In this document: piece after piece, positions 7,442 through 28,437 of the stretch
Numbering within the stretch: position 1 is the first letter of the stretch
Layout of the letters: every line of letters begins with the position of its first letter
Assembly (NCBI GenBank): GCA_963790805.1
Contig: CAWBPL010000002.1
Span: 384,696-448,695 of the forward strand
DNA length: 64,000 nucleotides
Origin: Candidatus Gottesmanbacteria bacterium
GTDB lineage: Bacteria; Patescibacteriota; Microgenomatia; UBA10105; UBA927
Direction: 5' to 3'
Made by a program: the position numbers and the translations under genes
Notes under the pieces: generated by a model
What the model saw: the letters and a program-made list of their open reading frames with translations, nothing else
Told to the model about the DNA's origin: nothing
The model's database searches: none

Positions 7442-7445
7442 TTTT

Positions 7446-9470: not shown

Positions 9471-10951
9471 ACCAGTATCCCCGCTTCTTTGAGCGCTACT
9501 TCCGCTCCTTTTGTTAACTGGATTTTTCTGCTCACAACGTCAAACCGAAGTTCCCGGATATCAAAATATTGCACGCTATCGACCTCTTCGGGATGTAGAG
9601 TAAACGGTCCGTCGCTTTGTCCTTTATATATCGCTGCGCGCTCGGTTTCTTTCTCATCCCGTACCATACATGTTTTTAAAAAGGTTAACGGCACATCAAT
9701 ACCCAATTCTTCCGATAATTCACGGTGCACCGCTTCATCATCTGTCTGACCTTTCGTCACGTGGCCGGCGGAGGATATTCCCCATAATCCCGGATCCATG
9801 TCTTTGGTCATACTCCGCTTTTGCAAAAGAAGTCTTCCCGCATGATCAAACAATAATACGCCAACCGTCCGATGGATAAGTGTCGGGTTGTGGTGACATT
9901 CAAAGCGCGTTTTATATCCAACAACCGTATCGCTTTCGTCAACAACAATGAAAAGTTCGTCCTGATTATCGGTAGTCTCAACACGTACGCCCTGCGCATC
10001 GGGAAGAACATCCATCACTTGCCCCCCTGCTTTTTGAATTGCCTCTGCAACAAGCGCACATTTGTCTTTTGCAGCAAGGGCAATCATGCAATCACCGCCG
10101 CCGGCTCCCGAAAGTTTTGCTCCCCATGCACCGGCACCTTTGGCTGCGCTCACGAGTGATTCCAACTTCTCGGAGCTTACTCCTAAATCGCGAAGATAGT
10201 CCTGATTAAAATCCATAAGTCGCCCGACACGCTCCCAGTCTCCTTCCAAAATTCTTGCTTTTGCTTCAACGACAAGTTTTTCTATCGCCTGAAATATCCG
10301 ATCAACTTTTTGGGGGTATGCCTTTCGCTTTTCGGCAACCATCGTTACTAACTGTGCCGTGTCCGCTTTTACTCCCGTATACCCGACAATGAGAGGTATT
10401 GAGGAAATCTTTATTGGTTCTATGACTTTCCCACCGCCAACAAAAACAATTGTTCCCCCCCAGATTGCTGCTGCAACATCAAATCCAGATCCTACACCTT
10501 GAACATCCAAAATAGTTTTATAGGCAATATCAAAAAGCTGTTTTTGAGACAATGGTGTGCAAGTAATCGATGCGAGCGCAAAAAGCACTGCAACGGTTGT
10601 TGCCGATGAAGATCCAAAACCAAAGGTTGAAGAAAAGCCTGCGTGCGTTTCAATACGGATTCCCGACGGAAGCGGATATCGTTCAACAAAATTTCGAACG
10701 GCAAATTCTGCAAACTGCGCCTGTTTGGGAATTTCACCGATCCCAAGATCTTTTATTGGCTTTTTATATCCCTTAATGTGTATGTCCGAAGCTTCCAGTT
10801 GAAAATCTGCTGAATCAATTAGGGAAGCAGATGCATGAATTCTTTGATCAACTGCAGTTACAAGACTCGAGTATCCATAGACAACCGCATGATCCCCCAT
10901 GAGAAGTAATTTTCCCGGAGCACTCACGCTTATGGATTGGTTATTTTTCAT
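9467..10951 (-). CDS. Phosphomevalonate kinase (GHMP) fused to a C-terminal Nudix / type-1 IPP-isomerase-like domain
   Basis: The N-terminal ~330 aa carry APGKLLLMGDHAVVYG, GFGSSSATTVA and QGVGSGFDVAAAIWGG (PMK-like). The C-terminal ~165 aa carry HHNPTLIHRTVGVLLF...LLLQKRS..KD..PGLWGISSAGHV...EAVHRELSEELGI, which aligns with E. coli Idi and the Nudix box. I place the start at ATG 10951, preceded by AAGGGA. The ORF-track GTG at 10972 is also possible. Confidence 0.8.
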   Translation of the reverse strand: MKNNQSISVSAPGKLLLMGDHAVVYGYSSLVTAVDQRIHASASLIDSADFQLEASDIHIKGYKKPIKDLGIGEIPKQAQFAEFAVRNFVERYPLPSGIRIETHAGFSSTFGFGSSSATTVAVLFALASITCTPLSQKQLFDIAYKTILDVQGVGSGFDVAAAIWGGTIVFVGGGKVIEPIKISSIPLIVGYTGVKADTAQLVTMVAEKRKAYPQKVDRIFQAIEKLVVEAKARILEGDWERVGRLMDFNQDYLRDLGVSSEKLESLVSAAKGAGAWGAKLSGAGGGDCMIALAAKDKCALVAEAIQKAGGQVMDVLPDAQGVRVETTDNQDELFIVVDESDTVVGYKTRFECHHNPTLIHRTVGVLLFDHAGRLLLQKRSMTKDMDPGLWGISSAGHVTKGQTDDEAVHRELSEELGIDVPLTFLKTCMVRDEKETERAAIYKGQSDGPFTLHPEEVDSVQYFDIRELRFDVVSRKIQLTKGAEVALKEAGILV

Positions 10952-11897
10952 CAAGTCGTATCCCTTCTTCACCTAATCGAACTGCACCAATACTATAGTT
11001 ATATTGTTTGCATATTTTCTCGATTGCCTGTTTATCACTGTGATAACAAAGTAAAAATCCAACTCCTTTTTCTCTGCCGCCGCCCCCTAAAATCTTTGCC
11101 GCAGCACCCAGCGCTTCAATCTTTCGAATCAAAGGGATTACGGTTTTACTGACCACTCCAAATCCCTCCAGTGTTTTTTCTCCCATCCGCAATGCATCAA
11201 TGAGTTCTTTTTCTTGACCCTCTTTCAACGCTATCGTAATTCGCTTAACCTGAGATTCGTTTTCATTAAGGAGTCGATCCATTTCTAACGGATTTTTTTC
11301 GTACTGTTTTCGCACAAATGCCACCATGTCTCCCGTCGACTCGAGAGGTCGTCCGGTGTTAATGAGGAAAAAATGATTGAGTTGAGCGGGTGGTCGAAAC
11401 GGCAACTGCCAAATACTTTTAAGAAATTCTAATTCCCGGCGATACCAGATAAAGCCTCCCATCGTGACTGCCGTATTGTCGCCGCCGGACGGATTACCAT
11501 GCTGTTTTTTTTCAATCTCATACGCAAGCTCGTTTATCCGGATGGGGTTCCAGATTTTTTTATAAAAATACATGAGTGCTGCGCTTATGCCAACCGCGAG
11601 TGCCGCCGATGAACCCAAATGAAATCCGGCTGGAATGTCGGAATCGATCGTCAACGTAACCGGTTTTGTATGAACAATGTTTAACTGCTTCATGACATAC
11701 AAAACTGCATAGCGAGCATGTTCGATAGATTCCGAAGATTGAATCGTAATATCGCTATTTTTTTTGCCTATCAAAGAGGGTTCGGAAATGCTCACGCGCA
11801 TTCGCATGTCGATAGCCGCAAGAAGAGCCGGCTTACCATACACCACCGCATGTTCACCCATGAGATGCACCTTGCCTGGAACGGAAACGGTAACCAT
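10941..11897 (-). CDS. mvk: Mevalonate kinase
   Basis: Carries VPGKVHLMGEHAVVYGKPALLAAI, GFHLGSSAALAV and KKQHGNPSGGDNTAVTMGG, all mevalonate kinase signature regions. Confidence 0.8.
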   Translation of the reverse strand: MVTVSVPGKVHLMGEHAVVYGKPALLAAIDMRMRVSISEPSLIGKKNSDITIQSSESIEHARYAVLYVMKQLNIVHTKPVTLTIDSDIPAGFHLGSSAALAVGISAALMYFYKKIWNPIRINELAYEIEKKQHGNPSGGDNTAVTMGGFIWYRRELEFLKSIWQLPFRPPAQLNHFFLINTGRPLESTGDMVAFVRKQYEKNPLEMDRLLNENESQVKRITIALKEGQEKELIDALRMGEKTLEGFGVVSKTVIPLIRKIEALGAAAKILGGGGREKGVGFLLCYHSDKQAIEKICKQYNYSIGAVRLGEEGIRLDEK

Positions 11898-11899
11898 AG

Positions 11900-12199
11900 C
11901 TAGACTGGTTTAACTTTTATACCGTACGGAATAACGTCATCAGTTTCTATTTGTATTGTCCGCCGGACAACCGTTACGACACGCTGGCCGATAACAAGAT
12001 TCTTTACATCATAATCCACCATTTGAGCCGCAAGAGATTCGCCGGTATCTAACTTCACAAGTGCAACTGGATAGGGCGCCTGATATCCAAAATCCGCCGG
12101 AGGAAGCCGGATAATGGTCCATGAAACGATCACGCCGGTTTTCCCGACCATTCGGGCGACAAATTTTTGATTTCTCCAAACCTTTACTGGACTGATCAT
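11900..12199 (-). CDS. DUF35-type OB-fold protein (thiolase/HMG-CoA-synthase partner), lacking the Zn ribbon
   Basis: The 99-aa product has an OB-fold-like sequence (GVIVSWTIIRLPP..., ALVKLDTGESLAAQMVD). It sits immediately downstream of the thiolase and HMGS genes, as in the archaeal trio. It contains no Cys residues. Confidence 0.65.
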   Translation of the reverse strand: MISPVKVWRNQKFVARMVGKTGVIVSWTIIRLPPADFGYQAPYPVALVKLDTGESLAAQMVDYDVKNLVIGQRVVTVVRRTIQIETDDVIPYGIKVKPV

Positions 12200-12203
12200 A
12201 TGA

Positions 12204-13358
12204 TTATAGTGTTAATATGTGTACTGTTGCCGTCGCACCGCTTCCTCCGACGTTATGGGCAAGTCCGACTTTTGCACGCGCTACTTGTCTTTTTTGTGCG
12301 CGACCACGCAACTGCTCAACTAATTCTGCAACCTGCTTCACGCCCGTTGCACCTACAGGATGACCGCATCCTTTCAGCCCGCCGGATGGATTAACAACGA
12401 ACCGTTTTGATTTCCCAAGTGTTGTCTCTCCGGCCGCAATTCCTTTTGCGGCTTTCCCTTTCGCATAAAATCCAAGATCTTCCATCGCAAGAATTTCAGC
12501 GATAGAAAAACAATCATGTACTTCCGCAACATCTATATCATTTGGTTCTACTCCCGACAGTTCGTACGCACGCTTTGCTGCACGCTTTGTCGCAGCAAGC
12601 TCAGTTAAACTGCTGCGCTGGGCCAAGCCTAATGTGTCTGTTGCTGTCGCTGACGCAATAATGCGCACGTTTGAATTTGCTGATTCAGTGTATTTTTTGT
12701 TGCTCGTTATGATAAGCGATGCGGCACCGTCAGAAATAGGCGAACAGTCTAAAAGCTTTAACGGGTCGGCAACACATGGACTTTTCATAACCTGTTCGAC
12801 AGAAATGAGCGAGTGAAATTGCGCATTGGGATTTAATGTCGCATGATAATGATTTTTTACAGAAACTGCTGCAAGATCTTCCTCTGTCGTTCCATACGTA
12901 GACATATGAATCCGAGAAAGAAGCGCGTATAGACCCGGAAATGTTGCCCCAGCCAATCGTTCCCCCTCGCTTCCGGCTCCCATAAGGGCGGTGGCCACAT
13001 CTTCAGGTTTATGGTCCGTCATTTTTTCCACTCCCAAAACGGCAACTGTTTGATATTGTCCCGACAATACAGCGTTAACTGCATTGTGAAGCGCTAATCC
13101 ACCTGATGCACAGGCGCCCTCAATTTTAAATGCAGGGACAAAGAGGCCAAGTTCTTCGGCAAAAAATGCTCCCAAATGTTCCTGACCGCCAAGCATGCCT
13201 GAAAGCATATTACCGACAAAGAGTGCTTCAATCTTGCTCGCTTCTATTTTGGCATCCAAAAGAGCGTTACCAACCGCCTGACCGGCCAAAGCGCGCGGAG
13301 ATATACCCCACAGTTCACCAAATTTTGTTGTCGCAGCTCCCAGTACAAAAATATTCAT
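12204..13358 (-). CDS. Acetyl-CoA acetyltransferase (archaeal/SCP-x-type thiolase)
   Basis: Carries GAATTKFGE, the active-site region IEGACASGGLALHNAV and the C-terminal GHPVGATGVKQV...NVGGSGATATV. Confidence 0.9.
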   Translation of the reverse strand: MNIFVLGAATTKFGELWGISPRALAGQAVGNALLDAKIEASKIEALFVGNMLSGMLGGQEHLGAFFAEELGLFVPAFKIEGACASGGLALHNAVNAVLSGQYQTVAVLGVEKMTDHKPEDVATALMGAGSEGERLAGATFPGLYALLSRIHMSTYGTTEEDLAAVSVKNHYHATLNPNAQFHSLISVEQVMKSPCVADPLKLLDCSPISDGAASLIITSNKKYTESANSNVRIIASATATDTLGLAQRSSLTELAATKRAAKRAYELSGVEPNDIDVAEVHDCFSIAEILAMEDLGFYAKGKAAKGIAAGETTLGKSKRFVVNPSGGLKGCGHPVGATGVKQVAELVEQLRGRAQKRQVARAKVGLAHNVGGSGATATVHILTL

Positions 13359-13359
13359 A

Positions 13360-14403
13360 TTAAATTTTATGAGTTTTTTTCAAGTATCCGACGTAATCAA
13401 TATAAACTTTCTTTTCAATTTGTTGACAAACTAATTCACCTTCTTCTTTCCGCTTTTTTTGCAACGGAATCATTTCATCTTGCACTTGCCACAAAAATGC
13501 GTCACTACCAGCTCCTGACCCATAAGAAACCATGAAAATAGTATCTCCTGGTTTCGCCTGATCCAGAGTGGCTGCTAACCCTAAAAGCGAAGCAGCGGAA
13601 TAGGGGTTGCCGATGCGATCAACGATTAAAGACGGCGCCAGCTGGGTGGCAGTAAATCCAAGCCGTTTGGCGGCTTCTCTTGGAAATTTTGCATTGGGCA
13701 TATGAAACACACAATGGGTTACATGATCTGGTGTTATCTTTGCTTTTTCCATCAGACTTTTTGCGGCACCCAACACATGAGCAAAATAGGCCGGTTCTCC
13801 GGTAAACCGTCCTGCGTGGGTAGGATATCGGATGCCATCACGCCGCCAAAAATCCGGCGTATCCGAGGAGTAGGAAGTATAGGACAGAAGCGTCGCAATA
13901 GTATGCATTGACCCTAATAGAAATCCTGCTCCTGCCGACGCCGATGTATACTCGAGCGCATCGTGCGGCTTACTCTGCGCCGTATCTGATCCGATAGCCA
14001 ACCCATAATGAATATGCTCGGATTCAACAAGTCCGGCGATTGCCTGCATGCCTGCTGTTGCCGCTTTACATGCAAACTCGAGATCAACAGCCAGATAATG
14101 ATTACCAATCCCAAGAAGTTCACCAACGATGGTTGACGTTGGATTTACCGCATACGGATGACTTTCTGATCCGACAAACAAAGCTTCAAGATCTGTGGGT
14201 TTACAACCGCTGAATCGAAGTGCGCTCTCACCCGCTTCAAGCGCAATAGTTACTGAATCTTCGTCAATGCCCGGCACAGATTTTTCTTGAATTCCAAGCG
14301 AACTCGCGATTTCTTTTCCATCTTTTCCCCACACTTTCGCTATATCTTCAAGGGTCACCCGATATCGGGGTATGTATGTACCATATGAAACAATTCCCGT
14401 CAT
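13360..14403 (-). CDS. Hydroxymethylglutaryl-CoA synthase (short, archaeal-type)
   Basis: The 347-aa product carries GIVSYGTYIPRYRV, DEDSVTIALEA, the catalytic Cys region DLEFACKAATAG and VSYGSGAGSDAF. Confidence 0.88.
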   Translation of the reverse strand: MTGIVSYGTYIPRYRVTLEDIAKVWGKDGKEIASSLGIQEKSVPGIDEDSVTIALEAGESALRFSGCKPTDLEALFVGSESHPYAVNPTSTIVGELLGIGNHYLAVDLEFACKAATAGMQAIAGLVESEHIHYGLAIGSDTAQSKPHDALEYTSASAGAGFLLGSMHTIATLLSYTSYSSDTPDFWRRDGIRYPTHAGRFTGEPAYFAHVLGAAKSLMEKAKITPDHVTHCVFHMPNAKFPREAAKRLGFTATQLAPSLIVDRIGNPYSAASLLGLAATLDQAKPGDTIFMVSYGSGAGSDAFLWQVQDEMIPLQKKRKEEGELVCQQIEKKVYIDYVGYLKKTHKI

Positions 14404-15575
14404 AGTGCGCCCCCTCTGCCAAGTTGTGCGTGGGCTCGCGCCAGCGTTCCTTCTTCAAGAGATGCAAGAAGTGAAATTTCTCCAGCCAATATCGCTGCGC
14501 CAGCTATTTCAGCAAAAAGACGTGCATTATTGCCGTTATCCCCTCCGGCAACTCCTAACATCGAAAGGGCCTCGTGTTGGGTCGCAAGTCCAGTTCCGCC
14601 TCCAACTGTACCGATCATCAAATCCGGAACGTATACACATACATATAAATCTTCGCCAGACAAAACTTCTGCGGTTGTCACACCCAAACTTCCTTCAACG
14701 ACATGCGCCGGATCCTGACCGGTAGCTAAAAATAATGCCGCGACCACATTGGCAAATTGGGCGTTAAATGCCATGGACCCGCTCATAACACTTCCCAGCA
14801 TACACTTGGCTAACCACACATCGTACATCTTTTGCGCTGTCGTTTTGAGAACTGTAGCAAGCACGGTTTTTGTCAACACAACTTCCGCCCAAACTTTAAT
14901 TCCTCGTTTTCCAAGAACATTGAGCCATGAAGGTTTTTTATCAACACAGTAATTTCCGGAAAGCGCCAAGCACTCAACTCCGGTTTTTTCCTGCATATAC
15001 GAAGCAATCGCTTCTGTCGCTATTGTCACCATGTTAAGTCCCATCGCGTCCTGCGTATCAAAAACAAACCGGACATACCGGTATCTCCCGATTCCTGTTG
15101 AGGAAAACGATGTGAGCGCAAGATGGTGAGATGTTTTGGCGGCGATCGCCTTGAGTTCATCAAACCGCGTATCCAAAAATGTACGAAGCGTTCTGTTTTC
15201 CGCTAGATTTTTCACCCGAAAAACCGGTCCTCGGGTAGCCCCTATTTTGTGGCTATCAACAATCGCTCCGCCGCTTTGCGTAATCGCCTTGCATCCGCGA
15301 TTAATTGACGCCACAAGCGCTCCTTCTGTTGTCGCAAGTGGTATATAATACTCTTTTTCCCTGTGAGCGATGGGGTTTGAAATGTGCGATTGAATCCGTA
15401 AAGGACCGGCAACTCCCACGGGAATCTGAGCTACTCCAATCATATTTTCACAATTTCTGGTTGAAGCGGCTGCTTCATCGAGCGTAAATGAGCCGATATG
15501 AGGCAGCTTAATGTGAAGCTCTTTCTCAAGCATCTCTCGCCGTTTCCCCGCCGATGTTCCTTTGCGTATATTCAT
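14400..15575 (-). CDS. HMG-CoA reductase, class I type
   Basis: Carries ENMIGVAQIPVGVAGPLRI, IPLATTEGALVASINRGCKAI, DAMGLNMV and GTVGGGT. The TTEGxLVAS motif is class I rather than class II. I place the start at ATG 15575 (MNIRKG...), a 4-nt overlap with the upstream stop. The ORF-track start at 15725 adds a Cys/Phe-rich extension inside the neighbouring gene. Confidence 0.9.
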   Translation of the reverse strand: MNIRKGTSAGKRREMLEKELHIKLPHIGSFTLDEAAASTRNCENMIGVAQIPVGVAGPLRIQSHISNPIAHREKEYYIPLATTEGALVASINRGCKAITQSGGAIVDSHKIGATRGPVFRVKNLAENRTLRTFLDTRFDELKAIAAKTSHHLALTSFSSTGIGRYRYVRFVFDTQDAMGLNMVTIATEAIASYMQEKTGVECLALSGNYCVDKKPSWLNVLGKRGIKVWAEVVLTKTVLATVLKTTAQKMYDVWLAKCMLGSVMSGSMAFNAQFANVVAALFLATGQDPAHVVEGSLGVTTAEVLSGEDLYVCVYVPDLMIGTVGGGTGLATQHEALSMLGVAGGDNGNNARLFAEIAGAAILAGEISLLASLEEGTLARAHAQLGRGGAL

Positions 15576-16189
15576 ATAAACGGTATACGAAAAATTCCCA
15601 ACCGATACATGCCGACAGTATAGAATCCTAAAATCGGCAACACGATGGCTGACAAAAGCACAATTTTCACAAGGTCCATTCGAAAAGCAAAACGCAATGT
15701 GAGATACGAAAGAATGACTTTCCAAAATAAAAGAATTGCGGAAACGATAAGATACACGATGCTAAACGCCACCCCGAAAAATCTTGTCGTTCTGGGCGGC
15801 GGCAATATGATGTAAAGAAGAAGTGTTATCCAAAACCAGAGAAGCGTTGGAATCATGCTGTATCCCCAACCGACGATAAGTCCCCGAAGATTTGTGGTGG
15901 CCCGCAATAACCGCCCGACCCCCCAGAAAAGCGAAACAGCCAATATTAACGTTAATCCTGTGGCTGATGCAAGCGTTATAAATTGCCGTGACAATAAAAA
16001 CGGTTCGAAAAGCGATTGTTTAACCAATGAAACGGTAAGCAAATAACACAGTATTAAAGCGACAACAAACGCGAATTCTCCTATATTTCCATGTTCAACT
16101 ATCCGTCGGCATGTTTCATAGGGCCTCGTGACAATGCCCACAAGATTCCGTCCAAACGATACACCAACCGTTGTAATCGAATTTGACAT
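15572..16189 (-). CDS. Polytopic membrane protein (Yip1-like, tentative)
   Basis: It has about five hydrophobic helices after a short soluble N-terminus (MSNSITTVGVSFGRNLVGIVTRPYETCRRI). I choose the start at 16189 to avoid overlapping the upstream small gene. Function unknown. Confidence 0.45.
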   Translation of the reverse strand: MSNSITTVGVSFGRNLVGIVTRPYETCRRIVEHGNIGEFAFVVALILCYLLTVSLVKQSLFEPFLLSRQFITLASATGLTLILAVSLFWGVGRLLRATTNLRGLIVGWGYSMIPTLLWFWITLLLYIILPPPRTTRFFGVAFSIVYLIVSAILLFWKVILSYLTLRFAFRMDLVKIVLLSAIVLPILGFYTVGMYRLGIFRIPFI

Positions 16190-16239
16190 AAACAAAACGG
16201 GCCATTTAAGGCCTATATATAATACGTCGAAGAAATCGG

Positions 16240-16470
16240 CTAAAACCCGCGCTGGAGGATGCTCACAATGAGTGTTATCGTAGAGCCAATAAGTATATAT
16301 AAAGCCAGAACAAAGAGAATTCCCGATAAAACCAGAGCCGGCCACGGCATAACTTTAAGCCGTTTGACTGCTCGTTTATATATCGGCGTTAGAGGTCCAA
16401 CGGTCTGAGGTGGAACTTCGGTCACTTCTTCCCACCGCTTCACAAATTTTGTATAAATCGTATCTGCCAT
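16240..16470 (-). CDS. Small single-pass membrane protein, candidate anti-sigma factor
   Basis: The 76-aa product has one TM helix and lies 8 nt downstream of the ECF sigma gene. The call is by position only. Confidence 0.4.
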   Translation of the reverse strand: MADTIYTKFVKRWEEVTEVPPQTVGPLTPIYKRAVKRLKVMPWPALVLSGILFVLALYILIGSTITLIVSILQRGF

Positions 16471-16478
16471 ACAATAAT

Positions 16479-17030
16479 TTAAATTGATAAAAATATCTCG
16501 ACAAACGCTTTTCTTGCCCGAAATAACTGTGATTCCACGCTTTTTAAAGAAACCGCAAATTTTTTCGCGATTTCCGCAACAGACAGGTTTTCTTCGTATT
16601 TGTAGACAATGAGCTTCCGATAGTGAGGCAATATTCGAGCCAGCACGTTATGAATTTTTTCTTTCAACATGGTTGTATCAAGCTCTTCCTCAGGGTTTAA
16701 TATCGGTGAAACCAGCATTTCAAGATTGGGCGTTTGCGAAAAAACTATGTGCCGAAGTTTTCGTCTCCTGTAAAAATCGATAATTTTGTGGTGACAAATC
16801 GAAAAAAGAAACGTTGAAAGACTGGAATTTCCCTGAAAATCACGGATCGCTTCCAAAAATCCGTAAAGCGTATCTTGTAGTATCTCTTCCGCGTCGGCGG
16901 GATTATCGATACGGGCACGGATAAAAGCCGTAAGTCTGGGGGTGTAGCGGCGATAAAAAAGCGAAAGCGCCTGTCGATCACGGGAGAGAATCTGACCAAT
17001 AAGCTTGCTGTCATCGGTGTTTTGTCGCAT
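16479..17030 (-). CDS. ECF-type RNA polymerase sigma-70 family factor
   Basis: Region 2 reads LSLFYRRYTPRLTAFIRARI...AEEILQDTLYGFLEAI. Region 4 reads YRKLIVYKYEENLSVAEIAKKFAVSLKSVESQLFRARKAF. Confidence 0.85.
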   Translation of the reverse strand: MRQNTDDSKLIGQILSRDRQALSLFYRRYTPRLTAFIRARIDNPADAEEILQDTLYGFLEAIRDFQGNSSLSTFLFSICHHKIIDFYRRRKLRHIVFSQTPNLEMLVSPILNPEEELDTTMLKEKIHNVLARILPHYRKLIVYKYEENLSVAEIAKKFAVSLKSVESQLFRARKAFVEIFLSI

Positions 17031-17117: not shown

Positions 17118-17438
17118 ATGAAACAGGTCTTCGCGCAAGTAGATATCGGAACCTATTTTCAACCGGCACAGCACTTTACGACACTGGGAAGTCTGGTTTC
17201 AGTGATCATGCCCAATGCATTTATTTTAGCCGGTATTATCGCCTTTGTTTTGTTAGTTTTCGGCGGATTTGGTATCATAGTAGGCGCAGGATCCGGTGAT
17301 CCGAAAAAAATAGAACAGGGAAAAAAGGCAATCACGGGGGCAGCGATTGGACTTATTATCATCGTTGCATCCGTCTGGATCATACAAATTATTGAGACAA
17401 TAACAGGAATGAACGGCAAACTCCTGCCATTACACTAA
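17118..17438 (+). CDS. VirB2/TrbC-like T4SS pilin-family protein
   Basis: N-terminus MKQVFAQ..., two TM helices flanking GGFGIIVGAGSGDPKKIEQGKKAITGAAIGLIIIV. Confidence 0.7.
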   Translation: MKQVFAQVDIGTYFQPAQHFTTLGSLVSVIMPNAFILAGIIAFVLLVFGGFGIIVGAGSGDPKKIEQGKKAITGAAIGLIIIVASVWIIQIIETITGMNGKLLPLH

Positions 17439-17439
17439 T

Positions 17440-17796
17440 ATGAATGTGCTCGCTGATGAAATAAGCGGTGTTGTCGGTACCATTACCATGCCCAATGGAT
17501 TTCAAAACGTCGATTCAACCTCCGGCGGTTTCGCCGTATTATTTAGTAATATTTTACGGCTGGTGTTTGTGGCTGCCGGCATCTTTGCATTTATCAACTT
17601 CATCATTGCAGGATTTGAATACATGAGCGCAGCCGGAGACAGCAAAAAGCTTTCCGCCGCACTGGATCGCATATGGTATTCGCTCTTAGGGCTTGTCGTA
17701 CTTGTGGGTTCATTTGCATTAACTGCGGTTGTTTCTCAGTTGTTTTTTGGTAACCCAACGTACATATTAAATCCGACGATTACGGGACCAAAATAA
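17440..17796 (+). CDS. VirB2/TrbC-like T4SS pilin-family protein
   Basis: Starts 1 nt after the previous stop. Core motif: AGFEYMSAAGDSKKLSAALDRIWYSLLGLVVLV. Confidence 0.7.
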   Translation: MNVLADEISGVVGTITMPNGFQNVDSTSGGFAVLFSNILRLVFVAAGIFAFINFIIAGFEYMSAAGDSKKLSAALDRIWYSLLGLVVLVGSFALTAVVSQLFFGNPTYILNPTITGPK

Positions 17797-17799
17797 TCT

Positions 17800-18183
17800 A
17801 TGATCTTAACTGACAATACTCTTCATTTAGGACCAATTGGCGGAAGCGGCTTGGGGCCATTTAGTACCATCGGAAGCTCTAACAATGGGTCGGCGGGTAT
17901 CACCGGCGTTGCTGATCTTGTCAGCTCCGTTATCGGAATTCTGACAGTCGTTGCAAGCGTCTGGTTTTTGTTAAATATTCTCTTCGGCGGATATGAATGG
18001 ATGTCAGCAGGCGGCGATTCCAAAAAAATCGGAGAGGCGCGCGATCACATTACCCATGCATTTATCGGACTTGTCATTGTTGTCGGTGCATGGGCGCTTA
18101 CCGCAACCGCTGGTCAATTCTTTGGCTTTAGCATATTGGATCCGGCAAAATTATTCGGGACCCTGCCTATCAACGGCAAATAA
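17800..18183 (+). CDS. VirB2/TrbC-like T4SS pilin-family protein
   Basis: Starts 3 nt after the previous stop. It has a Gly/Ser-rich N-domain. Core motif: GGYEWMSAGGDSKKIGEARDHITHAFIGLVIVV. Confidence 0.7.
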   Translation: MILTDNTLHLGPIGGSGLGPFSTIGSSNNGSAGITGVADLVSSVIGILTVVASVWFLLNILFGGYEWMSAGGDSKKIGEARDHITHAFIGLVIVVGAWALTATAGQFFGFSILDPAKLFGTLPINGK

Positions 18184-18184
18184 T

Positions 18185-18541
18185 ATGACCCATGTATTGG
18201 CACAGATCGTAAATCCTGTATTACCAAGTAGTATTGGAGGGAAAGGCTCATCAGGAGATCAGGGTGGCACAGCGCTGGGCCTGCTTGTCAGCAATGTTGT
18301 AGGCGGACTGTTTATCGCCGGATTTCTTCTCGCACTTGTTTTTTTGGTCATGGGAGGATTTACATGGATTACCTCCGGCGGAGATAAAACAAAACTCGAA
18401 AAAGCACGCGACGAAATCACAAATTCCCTCATTGGCATTGTTGTTGTAGCCGCAGCATGGGCTATTGCAACATTGGTTGCGAAATTCTTTGGCATGGATT
18501 TATCACATTTACCCATTCCTTCCATTCCGGGAGGAAACTAA
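18185..18541 (+). CDS. VirB2/TrbC-like T4SS pilin-family protein
   Basis: I use the in-frame ATG at 18185 (MTHVLAQI...), 1 nt after the previous stop. The ORF-track start at 17993 would overlap the preceding gene. Core motif: GGFTWITSGGDKTKLEKARDEITNSLIGIVVVA. Confidence 0.7.
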   Translation: MTHVLAQIVNPVLPSSIGGKGSSGDQGGTALGLLVSNVVGGLFIAGFLLALVFLVMGGFTWITSGGDKTKLEKARDEITNSLIGIVVVAAAWAIATLVAKFFGMDLSHLPIPSIPGGN

Positions 18542-18648
18542 AAATAACGAAGCTCAGAAATTATTCGGGGTTGACAAGGTAAAAACATTTGCGCGACAAT
18601 AACAACTAAGATATAATAAGCTATATTGTGACCGAAGGAGGATTCTCT

Positions 18649-18990
18649 ATGTTCCCACAAGTATTTGCTCAAAGTAATCCACAGATTACCATTAACCAAC
18701 CGTCAAACATCAAAATCGGTGATGTCGGCCAGCTTATCAGCGCTTTGGTGGGAACACTTCTTATTGTATCTGCACTTCTTGCATTCTTCTATCTTATTTT
18801 GGGAGGCATCTCGTGGATTACTTCAGGCGGCGATAAGGCAGCCATGGAAGCGGCCCGAAACAAAATCACGCATGCGATCGTCGGACTTATCATTGTGGGC
18901 GCCGCATGGGCTGTCATGATACTCGTTCAGAACTTCTTAGGCGTCACGATTATCGGCGGAACATTAAGCTTTCCGAAACCGTTTCAATAG
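18649..18990 (+). CDS. VirB2/TrbC-like T4SS pilin-family protein
   Basis: The ATG at 18649 (MFPQVFAQS...) is preceded by GGAGGA at 18637-18642. Core motif: GGISWITSGGDKAAMEAARNKITHAIVGLIIVG. A TATAAT hexamer lies at 18612-18617. Confidence 0.7.
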   Translation: MFPQVFAQSNPQITINQPSNIKIGDVGQLISALVGTLLIVSALLAFFYLILGGISWITSGGDKAAMEAARNKITHAIVGLIIVGAAWAVMILVQNFLGVTIIGGTLSFPKPFQ

Positions 18991-19022
18991 AGTGTACCCC
19001 GTTTCTTTACAGCGCTTCATAG

Positions 19023-19409
19023 GTGCGAGATAATACACGCATGATACTTACCCAACTTACTTCATTGTTTGTTGTACACGCCGCGGATGACTGGGGCGGA
19101 TGTTTACAGGGAAGCGGCACCGGCGCCCCTGACGTTGCGACGTTCACGTGTCTTGAGCCGCTTTTCAAAAACGTCATTCAAGCCATCATTGCGCTTGCGG
19201 GAGTCGCACTGTTTATCATGTTTTTGATCGGCGGGTTTAGTTTTCTTTTTTCCGGCGGCGATCCGAAAAAACTTGAGTCAGCACGAGGCACCATTACCAA
19301 TGCCATTATCGGTCTTATCGTCATCGTTGCCGCATACATCATACTTCGCATTATCGAGGTATTTACGGGGGTGCCTGTTACTAAATTTGGCGTTACCATA
19401 CCGCAGTAA
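19023..19409 (+). CDS. VirB2/TrbC-like T4SS pilin-family protein with Sec-type signal peptide
   Basis: The start is GTG 19023, or ATG 19041. The signal-like N-terminus is MRDNTRMILTQLTSLFVVHA|ADD, and the N-domain holds two Cys. Core motif: GGFSFLFSGGDPKKLESARGTITNAIIGLIVIV. Confidence 0.65.
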   Translation: MRDNTRMILTQLTSLFVVHAADDWGGCLQGSGTGAPDVATFTCLEPLFKNVIQAIIALAGVALFIMFLIGGFSFLFSGGDPKKLESARGTITNAIIGLIVIVAAYIILRIIEVFTGVPVTKFGVTIPQ

Positions 19410-19436: not shown

Positions 19437-20942
19437 TTGGACAATAGAAATGTGAAGCGCATATCGTGGTTTATCCAAATAGCACTTGCTGTCTTTCTTT
19501 TCCTCCTCATACCGGCGAGCCGGAATCTATTTATTTACGGTAATTCTTCCGTCTTGGCGGCTCCAGCTCCTTATCTAGAACAGAACTACGCCACAGATAC
19601 GGATAATGCAATCAAAAATCAGCAGGTAAGCCTTACTCCCATTACCGAACAAACCAGTTTTGTCGACATGCACTGGTTAACATGTCACATCATTACCTAT
19701 TATTACAACGGCCCGTATACCTGTACGCAGGACGAAACAATATATAAAACGTCAATGAAATCAAGTGCACTGGGCAACATCGCCATGGGCATAAATACCA
19801 TGTACGAAAATCCGCCGGCGGACCTCGCGTATTGGGTGCAGGACACTGCGCAATCACTTGGCATTGCGCCAAGACAGGTATACGCGCAGGGTATCGGATT
19901 TACGGGTCTTGCCCCTTTATTACCGGTATGGAAGGCGTTTCGCAATATCGCCTATCTTGTTTTAGCCCTTGCGATGATAGTAATCGGATTTATGGTTATG
20001 TTGCGCAAAAAAATCGATCCGAAAACCGTGGTTACCGTACAAAACTCAATTCCGCGCATTGTTATCGCTCTTATTCTTATCACATTTTCCTATGCAATCG
20101 TCGGGCTGTTTATCGATGTGATGTATCTTCTGATGGGGTTTTTATCAATAGTCGTCCAGGGGGCACTACCCAATACAACCCTCGGAAAGTCTCTTATACC
20201 CATAAATTTTTCTAATCCGGGATTTGTTGACCTTATTCGTGCTGTTCTTACCCCTGCCGGCGAAATGAGTCCTTCAACCTCAATGATTAATGATTTTTAT
20301 CACGGAGACGTATTGGGAGGGCTTTTAAACATGATTGGTACCGGGATATTTTATGGTACTGGGATCGGTTTCATATTTATGTTTATTATTACGATCGCGT
20401 ATTTAATCGCATTTATCCGCATACTTATGATGCTTCTTAACAGCTACGTTCAGATTCTCTTAGCGGTTTTGACCGGCCCGCTTCAAATTCTTGTCGACGT
20501 ATTTCCCGGAGCCGACGGATTTACATCATGGGTAAAAAATCTTGCGGCGAACCTCATCGTTTTTCCGGTTACCGCGCTTCTTCTTATGGTTGCTGATGTC
20601 ATTACACAATACACCGGCAGTCAGACGCTGTGGACTCCGCCGTTTTTGCCGCAAACCATTTATTCCGGCACGTTACCGGTCGTCGGCAATGTGACGGTTG
20701 GCGGTATGGGCGGGCTCGCTGAGGGAATTATTGCTCTTGGCATCGTCCTTGCAATCCCCAGTATCGTCAACGGCATAAAGGAAGCGCTCAAAGCCAAGCC
20801 GCTTATCAGCAGTGGTCTTGACGTGGTCGGCGGACAGGTGAAGGGAGCCTTCCCGATTGCTCTCCAGCTCGGTGGCATGGCGCTACAACATCAGCAAATG
20901 AGTCAATTCGGTAAAATGCTGGGACAGGGAAAAGAAGAATAA
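19437..20942 (+). CDS. Polytopic membrane protein, candidate VirB6/TrbL-like T4SS channel component
   Basis: The 501-aa product has an N-terminal signal/TM, an exposed domain of about 130 aa, and then at least 6 hydrophobic helices. It lies immediately downstream of the pilin array. The call rests on topology and context only. Confidence 0.4.
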   Translation: MDNRNVKRISWFIQIALAVFLFLLIPASRNLFIYGNSSVLAAPAPYLEQNYATDTDNAIKNQQVSLTPITEQTSFVDMHWLTCHIITYYYNGPYTCTQDETIYKTSMKSSALGNIAMGINTMYENPPADLAYWVQDTAQSLGIAPRQVYAQGIGFTGLAPLLPVWKAFRNIAYLVLALAMIVIGFMVMLRKKIDPKTVVTVQNSIPRIVIALILITFSYAIVGLFIDVMYLLMGFLSIVVQGALPNTTLGKSLIPINFSNPGFVDLIRAVLTPAGEMSPSTSMINDFYHGDVLGGLLNMIGTGIFYGTGIGFIFMFIITIAYLIAFIRILMMLLNSYVQILLAVLTGPLQILVDVFPGADGFTSWVKNLAANLIVFPVTALLLMVADVITQYTGSQTLWTPPFLPQTIYSGTLPVVGNVTVGGMGGLAEGIIALGIVLAIPSIVNGIKEALKAKPLISSGLDVVGGQVKGAFPIALQLGGMALQHQQMSQFGKMLGQGKEE

Positions 20943-20968: not shown

Positions 20969-23900
20969 TTACTCTTTGTGCTCTTCACCACCCATTCCGG
21001 AAACGATAGTACCCCCAACAATAATAATCGTTCCGTACACTGCAATATTTGATCCGGTAAAGCTCCACACGCCGCTTGGCGCCCGAAGATTCAAACCCTC
21101 GACAAACCGTGAAAACCGTTCGTGTGCAGGAACGTTCTGCATAAATACGCGGCCGATGGTGTTATTAAAGATATTCTCAAAAAAACGTGTCCTGTGTGTA
21201 TATGTCTGTCTCTTATGGGCAAACAGATTCGGTAACACTCTGTGAATCAATTTTGACCGGCGGCTGTCTGGAGGAAGCCTATCAGCTGCGCTTCGGATAG
21301 CTTTTGCCACAGGGTTTTCTTTGTGTGCTCGATAACTGCGACGACGCATTGTTAAAATATTTCTCCAGTTTGAAATACCGGTTTGCGATTCAGTTGCCTC
21401 AAAGGTGGCGGGTGCGCGGTGACTGAGCGCTCCTCTTGTTGCCTGAATCTTATCCACAAATCCGTGCCGCTCATCTACCGTCCACGATGGTGAATGGGTT
21501 GAATTCGTCGCCTTTCTCAACCGAGAACTCAAATTAAGCCACTTAAACCACCGCCACGTTCTGGTTTTTGCAGCGTCCAGATATCCCGAAAGCGCTCCGC
21601 AGGTAGAAACACCCGCATCTGTTTCGGAATTGTAGCCGAAAAATGTTGAATCCATCGTAACCATTGATTTCATCGCCGCTTCAGGATCGGCTTCCATAGT
21701 GCCCATAAAGTTTGTTATCTGGTCTTTTATACAGAGCCGGAAATCATGCATGCCGGTTACCCACAAACCCGTACGCCCCCGCCCGCGATCGGAAATCGCG
21801 CGGGATGCCGCTATATTGTCTTTTGCTTTCATCATAAGCGCGGCTGTCTCCGCATCCGCCTCTTCAGCAAAAATACTCATAAGATTTGTTTTTTCGACCT
21901 GCGTTAAAGGAATATCGTCGGTCCACAAAACGGATGAAAATTGATGCGCATATTTAACATCAAGAAAATCATCTATATGGGTAGAAACGTCTGTATAATA
22001 TCCTTTCATTGATGCTAAAAACTCATCGGGTTTCATGGGCGCTGCATCTGCCAACTTATCAAAAACATGCCGGAAGACGTCCTGCTGCATCGGTGTCCAC
22101 TGATTAATCTCCTGTGCGTTACTGGCAAGTCCGTAATGTATGGGCAACTCTCCGCGCATTTGAAGCTCATGATTAATAAGGTGAAAAAGGCGTACAGAAT
22201 CGTTGAGCTTCTTTTCTTCTGCGGCAGTAAGGCGCATTTCGGGATGATAATATTTTGTCTCAACGGCATGGCGCGCGCGGTACAACATGTGGGGGTGCGT
22301 TTTGGCTGCTGCTTTAAGTTCGTTGGTAAAGCCTTTGTCCCCAATTGCATCGTGACGCTCAATTTTCGGATTAAAGTAAGATTCGGCAGCTCCATATAAT
22401 CTTCCGCCCACCATAATCCCGTTTTCCGGATTTCCGTTGTCATCCAAACCTAAAGGGGAAACGAAATTGTGTTCAAATGCGGGAGCATATCTCGGATGCA
22501 GTCTTACCGCCCGCAGAACAGCGTTGCGCCGGACACCGCTTTTCCAGAAACCGTAAAAATTGATCGCATCGCGCTGGGCAAAATCACCCCCAATGTCTAC
22601 CAACACATAATGAAGAAGATTGTCACGGTCATCCTTAAATAAATGCATGCCTCTTGGGGGATCTTTATCGATTGTCGCAAAAAAACGAGCATATTCGGCG
22701 TCTGATCCGTTCGGAGCCAAATTCATCTTATGGTGATAATCTGCAAATATGCTCTTGAGCTCAAGAAACGTCGAATATTCATCAATTTTCGGCTTTAATT
22801 CAACAGGGACCGAATCAAACGAAGCGTTGGGATTTAATTCAAGAAACCTTTTAACATCAGCAAAATACCCCTTGTGATTTGCATGCTCCCATTCCTCCAT
22901 ATGAAGCCAGTCGTGACCATAACCGTTTTGTCCGTGTATTTTGTCATATAAAATATTCGTCCTCTCCATTCCCCAATCAAATAACTTATCGTCTTTTTCA
23001 ATATACATAAGGCAGCGGCCCTGCCAGATGGTCCGTGCATGGTCGGTCCAGTTGCGCCATTTGCGCAAAAACATATCGCGTACGCGATCGGCAAATCCTT
23101 CGCGGTCAACCCATGTTGCTCCTGCAAACGAGGTTATGTCGCCGACATCCTCACCTGCTATCGGCGTCGCGGCAAATGTATACGTATCCTCCTGCTGTTC
23201 AAAGCGGAGCATATACAGCGCTTCCGCGTACACACCGATGGACTTACACGTCTCCTCGCTATCAAGGCTCGTAATTTTGTTAATTTCTTGGAACATTTCA
23301 TCCACTGAAGGAGAGCCCTCACCAACAATATCTCTCATCTCTTCTAATTGCTGCCTTAGGTGTTTTGCATAATCCTCTTGATGTAAAGCGCGCTCTTCGT
23401 GCAGTTCTCTAACAGCCTCTTGCGTCGCCTGATGCCGCAATTCTGCGCTTGACCGGTGCGCTATACCCATACTCGGATGGTTGAGAAGTTCAATGTGATG
23501 CTCGCGGATTTTTTGCATCATAAGATCTCCGAGTTCTCCGTAATGGGCTCCTCCGCCAAAAACACCGCGATCTCCCAGAGATTCAACCATCTGCATCAAT
23601 CGTGTGTCATCCGCATAGCTGTCGCCGTGATTGAGTGCAACCACCAAATCAAGCGATCGGGCCCGGGAATGATAAATGTTCAGGGTTTCTGCTTTTTGGT
23701 TAATATACAACTGGCGATTATGGTAGACCCTGTCAAACGTTTCTTGACTGGTGGCTCTGTCAACCAAGACTTCCAAGCTTAATCCGTCTCCACCAACCAT
23801 CTTGTCGTAGGAATCCGACGTATACCAGTCAACGAGAAGCTTAAACCGCTGAAGCTTATCCTGAAAAACGTCGGATTCGTATCCGTATTCATAAATCATC

Positions 23901-25030
23901 TGCTCAAGAGAGCGTGAATACATTTCAAAAAACAATATGGGGTTTCGCACAAGCGCTTCTGTCTCGATTCTGTCAAGATAAATGCTGCTGTGTTGCTGAC
24001 CGAGCTCCGCAAGTTTTGATTCGTATTCATACAGTCGGGACCGAAACTCCCGAAGTACCTTCGCGCCATCCCCTCCAATCTCTAAAACACCTGTTTTATT
24101 ATTTCGCTTGGTAAGCCATCTGTTAATTGCATCCTCCGCGACACGGGCGGTATGTCCGCTTTCTATCTTGTCTGATCCAACCAGCTGACGAATATCATCA
24201 AGTGCATCTTTCAATTTGCCTGAACCAGCTGTCGGTATATCAACACTCCCTGCATTTCTATATTCTCCTGCGGAGGCCGGCCGGCTATATTTTTCCTGCA
24301 CAAACGTTACCATTCTTCTGTCTTCAAGGCTTCGCGCGTATTTTAACTCCAGAAGACCGACATCCTCACCGCCAAGCGACGTCATGGTCGCCTGACTGAA
24401 CATTTTTTTCTGTGATTCTGAAAATCCCAACTCATTTAGTCTGGCACGGATATGGCGCGTCGTTTCTTGCATGATGAGCATGCGCTCCGCCCGTCCTTCA
24501 GGGGTCAGTGCTGAAGAATCGGAAAGTGCGTAGCGCATAAGTTCACGCTCAAGCACGTACGGATCTTCCCTGAGGCGCTCGGGAATAAGCGCGAGGCGGC
24601 TGACAAATTCAGCAGCTTTCGGATCATTCTGTATTCTGTCACCCATGTTTTTCAACCACGGCGGCGCGTGGCCCTCCCGCGTGCGCACCATATTCATGGA
24701 TGTATCAAGCACTTTCTTTGCGTCTGTTATGTTGGCGGCAGTCAGCTGTGCGTCGGGATTTTTTAAATTTTTGAGTGCTGCGGTTTGCTTGGCTTTTTCA
24801 GATGAACCTGCATCCTTCACCCAGTCTTTTGAAGAATTAAGAAACCTGTCCTGATGCGCCTGATCTCCGACAATCTTATCTATCCCCTCCTGAAAGGTTA
24901 CTTTCTGCGTTTTTTCCAGACGGGTTGCGGCTTTTCGAAACGCCTTACCTGTTTCGGCTGTCCGAATGGCAGCCGATTGCGCAAGATTATAAAGAAACTT
25001 GCCTAATTCCTGGCCTTGCTCTAATCCCAT
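20969..25030 (-). CDS. Very large (1353 aa) protein of unknown function with a single extreme C-terminal TM helix
   Basis: The ORF is uninterrupted for 4062 nt. The sequence is mostly helical and charged, with no signal peptide and no motif I recognise. The C-terminus is IAVYGTIIIVGGTIVSGMGGEEHKE, a tail-anchor-like arrangement. Confidence 0.6.
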   Translation of the reverse strand: MGLEQGQELGKFLYNLAQSAAIRTAETGKAFRKAATRLEKTQKVTFQEGIDKIVGDQAHQDRFLNSSKDWVKDAGSSEKAKQTAALKNLKNPDAQLTAANITDAKKVLDTSMNMVRTREGHAPPWLKNMGDRIQNDPKAAEFVSRLALIPERLREDPYVLERELMRYALSDSSALTPEGRAERMLIMQETTRHIRARLNELGFSESQKKMFSQATMTSLGGEDVGLLELKYARSLEDRRMVTFVQEKYSRPASAGEYRNAGSVDIPTAGSGKLKDALDDIRQLVGSDKIESGHTARVAEDAINRWLTKRNNKTGVLEIGGDGAKVLREFRSRLYEYESKLAELGQQHSSIYLDRIETEALVRNPILFFEMYSRSLEQMIYEYGYESDVFQDKLQRFKLLVDWYTSDSYDKMVGGDGLSLEVLVDRATSQETFDRVYHNRQLYINQKAETLNIYHSRARSLDLVVALNHGDSYADDTRLMQMVESLGDRGVFGGGAHYGELGDLMMQKIREHHIELLNHPSMGIAHRSSAELRHQATQEAVRELHEERALHQEDYAKHLRQQLEEMRDIVGEGSPSVDEMFQEINKITSLDSEETCKSIGVYAEALYMLRFEQQEDTYTFAATPIAGEDVGDITSFAGATWVDREGFADRVRDMFLRKWRNWTDHARTIWQGRCLMYIEKDDKLFDWGMERTNILYDKIHGQNGYGHDWLHMEEWEHANHKGYFADVKRFLELNPNASFDSVPVELKPKIDEYSTFLELKSIFADYHHKMNLAPNGSDAEYARFFATIDKDPPRGMHLFKDDRDNLLHYVLVDIGGDFAQRDAINFYGFWKSGVRRNAVLRAVRLHPRYAPAFEHNFVSPLGLDDNGNPENGIMVGGRLYGAAESYFNPKIERHDAIGDKGFTNELKAAAKTHPHMLYRARHAVETKYYHPEMRLTAAEEKKLNDSVRLFHLINHELQMRGELPIHYGLASNAQEINQWTPMQQDVFRHVFDKLADAAPMKPDEFLASMKGYYTDVSTHIDDFLDVKYAHQFSSVLWTDDIPLTQVEKTNLMSIFAEEADAETAALMMKAKDNIAASRAISDRGRGRTGLWVTGMHDFRLCIKDQITNFMGTMEADPEAAMKSMVTMDSTFFGYNSETDAGVSTCGALSGYLDAAKTRTWRWFKWLNLSSRLRKATNSTHSPSWTVDERHGFVDKIQATRGALSHRAPATFEATESQTGISNWRNILTMRRRSYRAHKENPVAKAIRSAADRLPPDSRRSKLIHRVLPNLFAHKRQTYTHRTRFFENIFNNTIGRVFMQNVPAHERFSRFVEGLNLRAPSGVWSFTGSNIAVYGTIIIVGGTIVSGMGGEEHKE

Positions 25031-28378: not shown

Positions 28379-28437
28379 GTCCTGATGCGCTTTGTGCTAT
28401 TGCGTGCCAAAGAAAACGTCCGTACAATATTAATACA

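Follow-up and report, generated by a model that had tools for sequence, protein, structure and literature searches.

Ultrashort leaders that resemble truncated signal-peptide ends on VirB2-like pilins of a Gottesmanbacteria-like type IV secretion system

How can a pilin carry what looks like the cleavage site of a signal peptide when the hydrophobic core of that signal peptide is missing? The question is raised by a 64,000-nucleotide stretch of DNA from Candidatus Gottesmanbacteria bacterium (GenBank assembly GCA_963790805.1, contig CAWBPL010000002.1, positions 384,696 to 448,695), which encodes eight pilins, here called g1 to g8. The whole stretch is referred to as the window, and positions are counted from its first letter. 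The pilins are VirB2-like proteins of the family PF18895 (T4SS_pilin) and belong to a chromosomal type IV secretion system (T4SS) of Patescibacteria (Gottesmanbacteria-like, Microgenomates); with 28.7 to 42.7 bits, all eight scored above the gathering threshold of the Pfam hidden Markov model (HMM), which is 26.6 bits. Their genes form two clusters, a tandem array of g1 to g6 at 17118-19409 and the pair g7 and g8 at 6980-7790. Six of the eight begin with a leader of a few residues that ends in a short conserved motif. This motif is very probably a truncated signal-peptide end that is under selection. We favor the reading, to which we assign a probability of about 0.55, that the leader is a signal peptide without hydrophobic region (h-region) that has kept a site of the signal peptidase I type and is probably still cleaved. 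In the following, an arrow marks the known or presumed site, with position -1 before and +1 behind it. The pilins are:

g1, 17118-17438, plus strand: 106 residues, leader MKQVFA (17118-17135), Gln at +1 (17136-17138), PF18895 with an E value of 8e-9
g2, 17440-17796, plus strand: 118 residues, leader MNVLA (17440-17454), Asp at +1 (MNVLADE), PF18895
g3, 17800-18183, plus strand: 127 residues, leader MILT (17800-17811), Asp at +1 (MILTDN), PF18895
g4, 18185-18541, plus strand: 118 residues, leader MTHVLA (18185-18202), Gln at +1 (18203-18205), PF18895 with an E value of 2.5e-10
g5, 18649-18990, plus strand: 113 residues, leader MFPQVFA (18649-18669), Gln at +1 (18670-18672), PF18895
g6, 19023/19041-19409, plus strand: 128 residues from GTG at 19023 or 122 residues from ATG at 19041, PF18895 with an E value of 6e-11
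g7, 6980-7441, plus strand: 153 residues, full Sec signal peptide MRYMDLVGRILIVLMLCMFAVNVVHA↓D (…AVNVVHA↓DTP), Ala at -1 (7055-7057), PF18895
g8, 7446-7790, plus strand: 114 residues, leader MYHILA (7446-7463), Gln at +1 (7464-7466), PF18895 with an E value of 8e-10

A first-pass annotation of the window had quoted the N termini MKQVFAQ, MTHVLAQ, MFPQVFAQ and MYHILAQ (the last at 7446), and these were exact, as were MNVLADE (g2) and MILTDN (g3), which it had named as further paralog starts and which have the same motif with Asp at +1. It had also described two paralogs with full Sec signals ending in VVHA↓A and VVHA↓D. Both endings were found, but "full" does not hold for g6: its Sec-like signal, which ends in SLFVVHA↓ADDWGGC (Ala at -1, 19080-19082), is short and only moderately hydrophobic, with 14 residues from the ATG and 20 from the GTG. 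A class I (Sec) signal peptide has an h-region of about 7 to 15 residues between its n- and c-regions. Such a region is present in g7, weakly developed in g6 and missing in g1 to g5 and g8, which have only 4 to 7 residues before the site. The -3/-1 rule (small or aliphatic at -3; Ala, Gly or Ser at -1), on the other hand, is followed in the window (VFA, VLA, ILT, VLA, VFA and ILA in the short leaders, VHA twice), with the Thr at -1 of g3 as an outlier. The genes are tightly packed; g2 begins 1 nucleotide past the stop of g1, and g8 begins 4 nucleotides past the stop of g7.

The frequency of the motif was determined in 73 related loci, in which an iterated HMM found 444 pilin open reading frames (ORFs) that form six syntenic orthogroups matching g1 to g6; counts were made over 419 single-domain pilins of 74 loci. 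A [VIL][FLY]A ending by residue 12 was present in 214 of the 419 pilins (51%) versus 11 of 671 control proteins from the same loci (1.6%) and about 20 of 419 shuffled sequences (about 5%). With Gln at +1 included, it was found in 138 pilins (33%), in none of the 671 controls and in about 4 of the shuffled sequences (1%). Among 254 short forms, Gln was at +1 in 134, and about half had Lys or Arg at -4. When pilins were anchored only on "AQ" (340 of 800), -1 was Ala and -3 was L, V, I, T, A or F in about 88%. In the Gottesmanbacteria-like loci about 69% of the pilins had a short leader, 2% had a full signal peptide and 28% were leaderless or other; the values for more distant Microgenomates loci were 42%, 14% and 44%. 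The automatic signal-peptide class was noisy and took in leaderless proteins with an early first transmembrane (TM) helix, and the count of about 25 to 30 signal peptides in 419 pilins is approximate. The motif is general within the pilins of Microgenomates.

Conservation was most clearly seen in the g4 and g5 orthogroups. For g4, 145 unique orthologs were anchored on a downstream NP motif, so that the leader motif was not presupposed. Leu was at -2 in 94%, Ala at -1 in 92% (otherwise mostly Thr or Ser) and Gln at +1 in 93%, and positions -7 to -4 were variable in length and sequence. The leaders had 4 to 9 residues with a prefix of 1 to 6 residues, and neither a leaderless form nor a full signal peptide was found among the 145, all of which keep the motif. 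For g5, 119 of 120 database gene calls begin with M-x(0-9)-V-[FYH]-A-[AQ], of which 39 are plain MVFA↓A; Ala is at +1 in 61 of the 119, and VFA is kept in all. The conservation in orthologs on which the first-pass annotation had staked its motif was thus borne out by both groups. The g1 orthogroup follows the pattern M-x(0-6)-[VI][FLY]A, and the g2 orthologs read …[VI][FL]A↓[QDEA] or are leaderless with M-[ED]-x-IVG. The Thr at -1 of g3 is an outlier among 51 orthologs, nearly all of which have M-x(1-5)-[LIVF][LFY]A. In the g5, g2, g3 and g1 groups, positions -3 to -1 were less variable than +2 to +6, a comparison that is partly circular because the members were chosen by the motif pattern. 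All four Ala codons and several Val, Leu and Gln codons are used in the motif. Since the codons vary while the amino acids are fixed, selection acts on the protein, and conservation at the level of DNA or RNA was rejected for the same reason. Gene conversion between the paralogs of the window was rejected as well, since their codons differ.

A trivial answer would be that the starts are misannotated and that translation of ordinary signal peptides begins upstream, at noncanonical codons or by read-through out of the pilin gene in front. Open in-frame stretches before g4 and g8 (70 and 41 codons) leave room for this; they overlap the preceding pilin gene at its 3' end, however, and are not signal-like. 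In-frame stops lie 17 (TGA), 9, 1 and 13 codons upstream of g1, g2, g3 and g5, respectively, with no ATG, GTG or TTG between, and the few residues encoded between stop and start are not hydrophobic. The ORF of g5 was listed from a GTG at 18628; the likely start is the ATG at 18649, which is preceded at a distance of 7 nucleotides by the Shine-Dalgarno sequence GAAGGAGG (GGAGG) at 18634-18641. Among the 254 short-form genes of the related loci, the distance from the upstream in-frame stop to the site is below 15 codons in 134. An upstream start together with any hydrophobic stretch was found in only 10, and these overlap the preceding gene. Public gene calls, which are independent, gave identical starts. 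Stop geometry and gene calls together exclude true starts elsewhere with full signal peptides, the outcome that had been set beforehand as refuting the motif, and we give an annotation artefact next to no credence. A polyprotein or read-through across the tandem array of the window was ruled out by differing frames and stops.

Where does the motif come from? Distant homologs of g4 and members of the wider family have full Sec signal peptides that end in …SVLA↓Q, …PAFA↓Q, …PVAA↓Q and …QVFA↓Q, and xxAQ was found at residues 15 to 45 in 51 of 124 members of the wider family versus about 4% expected. In one alignment (A3), MFPQVFA↓ (g5), MVFA↓ and MNLIQPVYA↓ line up under the c-regions of full signal peptides (…TPAFA↓, …APVMA↓ and MKKALTVTSTFLSSLALATPAFA↓), and the sequences grade from full signal peptides to MVFA. 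The same was seen around g8, whose relatives (representatives at 50% identity) start with MTHLLAQ, MNKLLAQ, MKLAQ or MLAQ or have full signal peptides ending in …PVFA↓QELILPG. In the g6 group, full signal peptides (…LLTPIHA↓ATWGSC) occur together with short leaders (MNIVFA↓ATNWGGC and MVYA↓ADWSSC) and with leaderless proteins that start at the +1 residue (MATWDSTC, MAAWTGC and MADWTATPGC, to be compared with …PIHA↓ATWGSC and …VYA↓AAW), the last making up about half of the group. Of the 51 aligned g3 orthologs, one has a full signal peptide (…LVPLVSA↓QQPLGTIGGEGLGPF), about 43 have short leaders and about six are leaderless. A leaderless Met also stands at the predicted mature end in MEQIVGQV, to be compared with …IFA↓EDDIVGSV. 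These series show that the signal peptide was eroded repeatedly within orthogroups, from full to short leader to leaderless. Since about half of the leaders have Lys or Arg at -4, the leader reads as an n-region joined to a c-region with the h-region deleted. The proposal of the first-pass annotation, that the short forms correspond to the part of a signal peptide around its cleavage site with the hydrophobic core missing, is therefore supported by the same tripeptide ending Sec signals in orthologs and in the wider family.

Full and short forms also differ downstream of the site. At least two Cys residues in the N-terminal domain were present in 72% of the pilins with full signal peptides but in only 4% of the short-leader forms of the related loci. 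In the window, g6 (19023-19409) and g7 (6980-7441) have two and four Cys residues in this domain, and keeping the signal peptide may go together with disulfide bonds in the N-terminal domain. We also considered that the leader is kept only because removal of Met cannot yield an N-terminal Gln. This idea fits g4, in which Gln is at +1 in 93% and the leader is never lost, and g6, in which Ala is at +1 and about half of the proteins are leaderless. It is contradicted by g5, in which 61 of 119 orthologs have Ala at +1 and all keep VFA. The need for an N-terminal Gln is thus a partial factor at most.

The motif is not confined to the start of a protein. A polytopic VirB6-like protein of 501 residues, encoded directly 3' of the six-gene array (19437-20942, plus strand), has the internal sequence …LGIAPRQVYA↓QGIGFTGL… (QVYA at 19875-19886). 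It lies about 150 residues from the N terminus and is followed, after about 22 residues, by a pilin-like TM hairpin. The protein had no Pfam match; it was matched by the iterated pilin HMM with an E value of 7e-8, and the A-Q of its internal block is kept in 42 of 44 orthologs. Homology of pilins to the N-terminal region of VirB6 has been noted before (PMC9905601), and the VirB6-like protein is possibly a pilin-VirB6 protein that is fused or processed. An exhaustive phmmer search of public proteins with g8 also found many multidomain pilins with 2 to 10 PF18895-like hairpins per chain (P0345-P0494; locus L074, 1009-1659). Most of these have one N-terminal signal peptide and no motif at the junctions. 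In at least eight fused di- or tripilins, however, junction motifs without Met are present, such as …FISPVYA↓QG, …LVPEVYA↓QS, …MVPAAYA↓QS, …SPAFA↓QG and …TVAHA↓QT; the fused dipilins include P0351, P0353, P0356, P0400, P0412, P0442 and P0443. One fused pilin was confirmed as a continuous ORF in contig DNA. Since these internal copies lack Met, the motif is not tied to translation initiation, and at their position a cut on the extracytoplasmic side would release the units from one another.

How such a protein could be exported is suggested by its architecture. In the AlphaFold2 (AF2) model of g4, helices span residues 24-63 and 68-101 with pLDDT values above 90, and residues 1-23 are a low-confidence coil. 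The loop between the first and second TM helices has an SGGDK sequence (GGD-x-x-K) that is invariant or nearly so in the pilin alignments, and its density of Lys and Arg is 13 per 100 residues versus 5 per 100 in the N-terminal tail. Judged from these features, the first TM helix and the positive-inside loop should be enough to export the tail. We propose that the Sec signal peptide would have lost its h-region, leaving a leader of 3 to 12 residues composed of Met, 0 to 6 polar residues (the old n-region) and [VIL]-[FLY]-Ala (the old c-region), followed by a conserved first mature residue, most often Gln. The first TM helix of the pilin would act as a reverse signal anchor, so that the signal peptide would no longer be needed; the tail of about 30 residues would be carried across the membrane, and the loop rich in Lys and Arg would stay inside. 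The exported tail would then be cut after Ala at the outer face by an activity like that of a type I signal peptidase. Such a cut would yield a mature N terminus, with a Gln that could form pyroglutamate, equal to that of the relatives with full signal peptides and to that of the leaderless relatives after removal of Met. Translocation of the tail, cleavage, the identity of the enzyme and pyroglutamate formation are steps that we infer.

Several points weigh against cleavage by signal peptidase I. The enzyme normally needs the h-region to place the site at the membrane surface for efficient cleavage, and leaders of 3 to 11 residues are far shorter than known signal peptides. The conservation does not follow the textbook pattern, being higher at -2 (L, F, Y or I in 96%) and +1 than at -3. 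About 12% of the short forms have K, D, E, Q, N, H or Y at -3 (MKLAQ, MELAQ and MDLAQ), which are poor residues for this peptidase, and a Lys or Arg at -4, present in about half of the leaders, is less than ideal for translocation of the tail. Some orthogroups can do without the leader, as their leaderless members show. Moreover, the g5 orthologs keep VFA in front of Ala, although their N terminus would be obtainable by removal of Met alone, which suggests that the tripeptide acts before, or instead of, its removal. Finally, no solved structure matched the pilins in searches of the PDB: a profile search of PDB sequences with the pilins was empty, and a Foldseek search of the PDB with the g4 model gave nothing at an E value of 0.001 or below, only noise, the two-helix hairpin being too simple to discriminate.

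Some of these points are what one would expect if the leader were an uncleaved relic. Derived from the c-region of a signal peptide, Met-x-[VIL]-[FLY]-Ala-Gln would then stay on the mature pilin as a hydrophobic cap at the interface that aids insertion of the tail or packs on subunits or lipid in the pilus, and the N-terminal peptides would be MTHVLAQIVNPVLP… or (M)VFAADPQ…. A hydrophobic residue at -2 in 96% is stricter than signal peptidase I requires, the residue at -3 moves from A/V in full signal peptides to L/V/I in the short forms with its 12% of unfavorable residues, VFA is never lost in g5, and the archaeal pilin CedA1 is unprocessed (PMC9905601). Yet the same tripeptide is necessarily removed in the homologs with full signal peptides, so that the mature fold does not need it, and leaderless orthologs begin at +1 and not at the tripeptide. 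A cleavage site, unlike a cap, predicts Gln at +1 and a small residue at -1 that hardly varies (Ala, in rare cases Ser or Thr). The internal copies at the junctions of fused pilins and the low-confidence coil predicted for residues 1-23 of g4 also speak against a cap. We consider the relic the main rival but a minority possibility and prefer the signal peptide without h-region whose site is probably still cut, at the probability of about 0.55 given above; for cleavage of the leader as such, the chances appear even or slightly better. The more specific proposal is tentative. It holds that the pilins represent a class of ultrashort leaders without h-region (3 to 12 residues) that would be cut at Φ-Φ-Ala↓Gln on the outer face after translocation of the tail independently of a signal peptide, that the same site would split poly-pilins and cut the VirB6-like protein, and that the exposed Gln would turn into pyroglutamate, by an unrecognized substrate mode of signal peptidase I or by a dedicated peptidase.

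Is there a gene for a dedicated peptidase? The first-pass annotation had suggested a search of the genome for a TraF/LepB-like or other candidate peptidase, and none was found in the window or, by a crude scan, near the related arrays. About 57 ORFs of the 64-kb window were scanned without a Pfam match to Peptidase_S26, the family of TraF and LepB. The crude scan, for ORFs with at least two of the S26 box motifs, was negative in the window and in 73 related loci, which have about 20 kb each and reach about 10 kb from the arrays. The sole peptidase found in the window is an M23 cell-wall hydrolase. This result would also fit the uncleaved relic. A dedicated maturation would require a specialized peptidase, TraF-like (S26) or unrelated and encoded elsewhere, that recognizes Φ-Ala↓Gln without an h-region, followed by modification of the Gln, either to pyroglutamate by an enzyme or by head-to-tail cyclization as in TrbC of IncP and TrhA. 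Cyclic pilins reportedly exist, as in the case of TrhA of the H-pilus. The preference for [AV]-[FLY]-A↓Q throughout the family, in long and short forms, is tighter than the generic specificity of signal peptidase I; together with the Gln at +1 in the 134 of 254 short forms and the recurrence of A↓Q in VirB2 and TedC (PMC9905601), this would agree with a specialized enzyme. However, many orthologs have Ala, Asp or Glu at +1, and the C termini of the pilins vary in length and sequence, so that nothing here indicates cyclization. The parallel to VirB2 drawn in the first-pass annotation holds for the Ala↓Gln site, as mature VirB2 begins with QSAG. Cyclization of VirB2 is disputed and is contradicted by two cryo-electron microscopy studies (one of them PMC9905601), in which it was non-cyclic in the pilus. 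A dedicated peptidase with cyclization or enzymatic pyroglutamate formation is possible without support from gene content, and we consider it improbable.

Agrobacterium VirB2, RP4 TrbC, F TraA and the archaeal TedC are the closest parallels to the pilins of the window; they are likewise small two-helix membrane hairpins encoded together with homologs of VirB4, VirB6 and VirD4. The signal peptides of the bacterial pilins VirB2, TrbC and TraA have about 36 to 51 residues. For TedC, a signal peptide of 20 residues with the site AVA↓QA was predicted (PMC9905601), whereas the leader described here has 3 to 12 residues and no h-region. VirB2 and TedC share the Ala↓Gln site, and the system of the window differs in being of the monoderm (Gram-positive-like) type. 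None of the eight pilins matched PF04956 (TrbC/VirB2) at an E value of 0.01 or below, and g1, g4, g5, g6 and g8 were unmatched even at 5 or below; several PF18895 homologs match both families, which are thus related.

The archaeal Ced system of Aeropyrum pernix offers a pilin, CedA1, that is VirB2-like and exported without a cleavable signal peptide, and its VirB6-like partner CedA has a pilin-homologous N-terminal region (PMC9905601) that corresponds to the pilin-like module in the VirB6-like protein of the window. CedA1 differs in being reported as unprocessed and in being without a conserved N-terminal motif of the AxA↓Q type, whereas the pilins of the window keep a cleavage-site motif under selection. 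The class III leaders of type IV prepilins and archaellins, processed by PilD or FlaK, are also very short and often positively charged leaders on filament subunits. They have Gly at -1, a hydrophobic helix directly behind the site and a cut at the cytoplasmic face. The pilins of the window, in contrast, have Ala at -1, Gln at +1 and 20 to 40 mostly polar residues before the first TM helix (polar from +1 to about +25), so that the Gly(-1) of a class III leader is not present.

VirB2-like arrays of Patescibacteria have been described by Quinonero-Coronel et al. in 2025 (PMC12102498), by Wang et al. in 2023 (PMC10633639) and in a review (PMC12857230). They consist of the same PF18895 family in tandem arrays of 2 to 11 divergent paralogs, are abundant in Microgenomatia and lie near virB4 and dnaA, as here. 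A term search of these three papers found no discussion of pilin leaders or their processing. The term "signal peptide" occurs 0 times in PMC12102498 and PMC10633639 and once in PMC12857230, there with respect to Brucella effectors; one array is cited as "Sec secreted" in these papers. Pilin arrays were thus already known, and by this term search the leader without h-region and its conservation were not described in the three papers.

The array of six pilins in Southlakia epibionticum is essential (PMC10633639), and T4SS and pilin array together are essential for the epibiotic life of this organism, the only member of Patescibacteria that is genetically tractable (Wang et al., 2023). Patescibacteria are a very large and mostly uncultivated phylum, and the T4SS is conserved across it. 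The route of pilin export and maturation decides what the surface of the pilus looks like and which N termini are the true ones for antibodies, mass spectrometry and structures. It also bears on how reliable signal-peptide predictors are here, which would probably score most of these pilins as non-secreted. A conserved site of the signal-peptidase type without hydrophobic core is a natural experiment on the substrate needs of signal peptidase I or another enzyme, and the series from full to leaderless forms within orthogroups shows the erosion of a signal peptide once a protein inserts by itself. Even an uncleaved leader would provide a rule of use in annotation and an instance of evolutionary relics, albeit an ordinary one.

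The pilin genes are accompanied by further genes of the secretion system:

26097-28286, minus strand: VirD4-like coupling protein (Pfam TrwB_AAD_bind/TraG-D_C)
28363-29802, plus strand: PrgI/VirB3-like protein (Pfam PrgI)
29799-30455, plus strand: protein of 218 residues without assignment
30460-32412, plus strand: VirB4-like ATPase (Pfam P-loop_TraG/AAA_10)
32415-34691, plus strand: M23 hydrolase (Pfam Peptidase_M23)

The genes of the VirD4-like, PrgI/VirB3-like and VirB4-like proteins and of the M23 hydrolase are all located at most 15 kb from the pilin array. The T4SS proteins of 218 and 329 residues had no database match. The cluster is adjoined by dnaN and dnaA (35703-38414, minus strand), which places the system at the replication origin; T4SS loci with VirB2-like pilin arrays near the replication origin have been published for some Patescibacteria (PMC12102498, PMC12857230).

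Divergently upstream of the array, within 15572-17030 on the minus strand, are genes for an extracytoplasmic function (ECF) sigma factor (16479-17030), a membrane protein of 76 residues (16240-16470) that is possibly an anti-sigma factor, and a Yip1-domain protein. These genes are kept in 48 to 51 of the 73 related loci, which suggests a dedicated regulation of the array. Directly after the gene of the VirB6-like protein lies an ORF of 1353 residues (20969-25030, minus strand) without Pfam match. A homolog was found in only 1 of the 73 related loci, with the flanking genes conserved, and the ORF possibly encodes a surface or effector protein that is hypervariable.

The two pilin arrays flank a mevalonate pathway cluster that looks complete (8490-15725, minus strand) and encodes diphosphomevalonate decarboxylase, GHMP kinases (one of them a NUDIX fusion), thiolase, a hydroxymethylglutaryl-coenzyme A (HMG-CoA) synthase-like protein and HMG-CoA reductase; undecaprenyl-diphosphate synthase is encoded at 7795-8484. 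A large serine recombinase (Resolvase, Recombinase, Zn_ribbon_recom) at 85-1458 on the plus strand marks the left edge of the window, and a mobile element may be near. Two large proteins with PQQ/beta-propeller and DUF5060 domains are encoded at 38508-41450 (plus strand) and 47237-50677 (minus strand), one of them as a fusion with a WecG/TagA glycosyltransferase. The genes between them form a cell-envelope glycan cluster with Wzy_C ligases, glycosyltransferases, an epimerase and a DegT aminotransferase.

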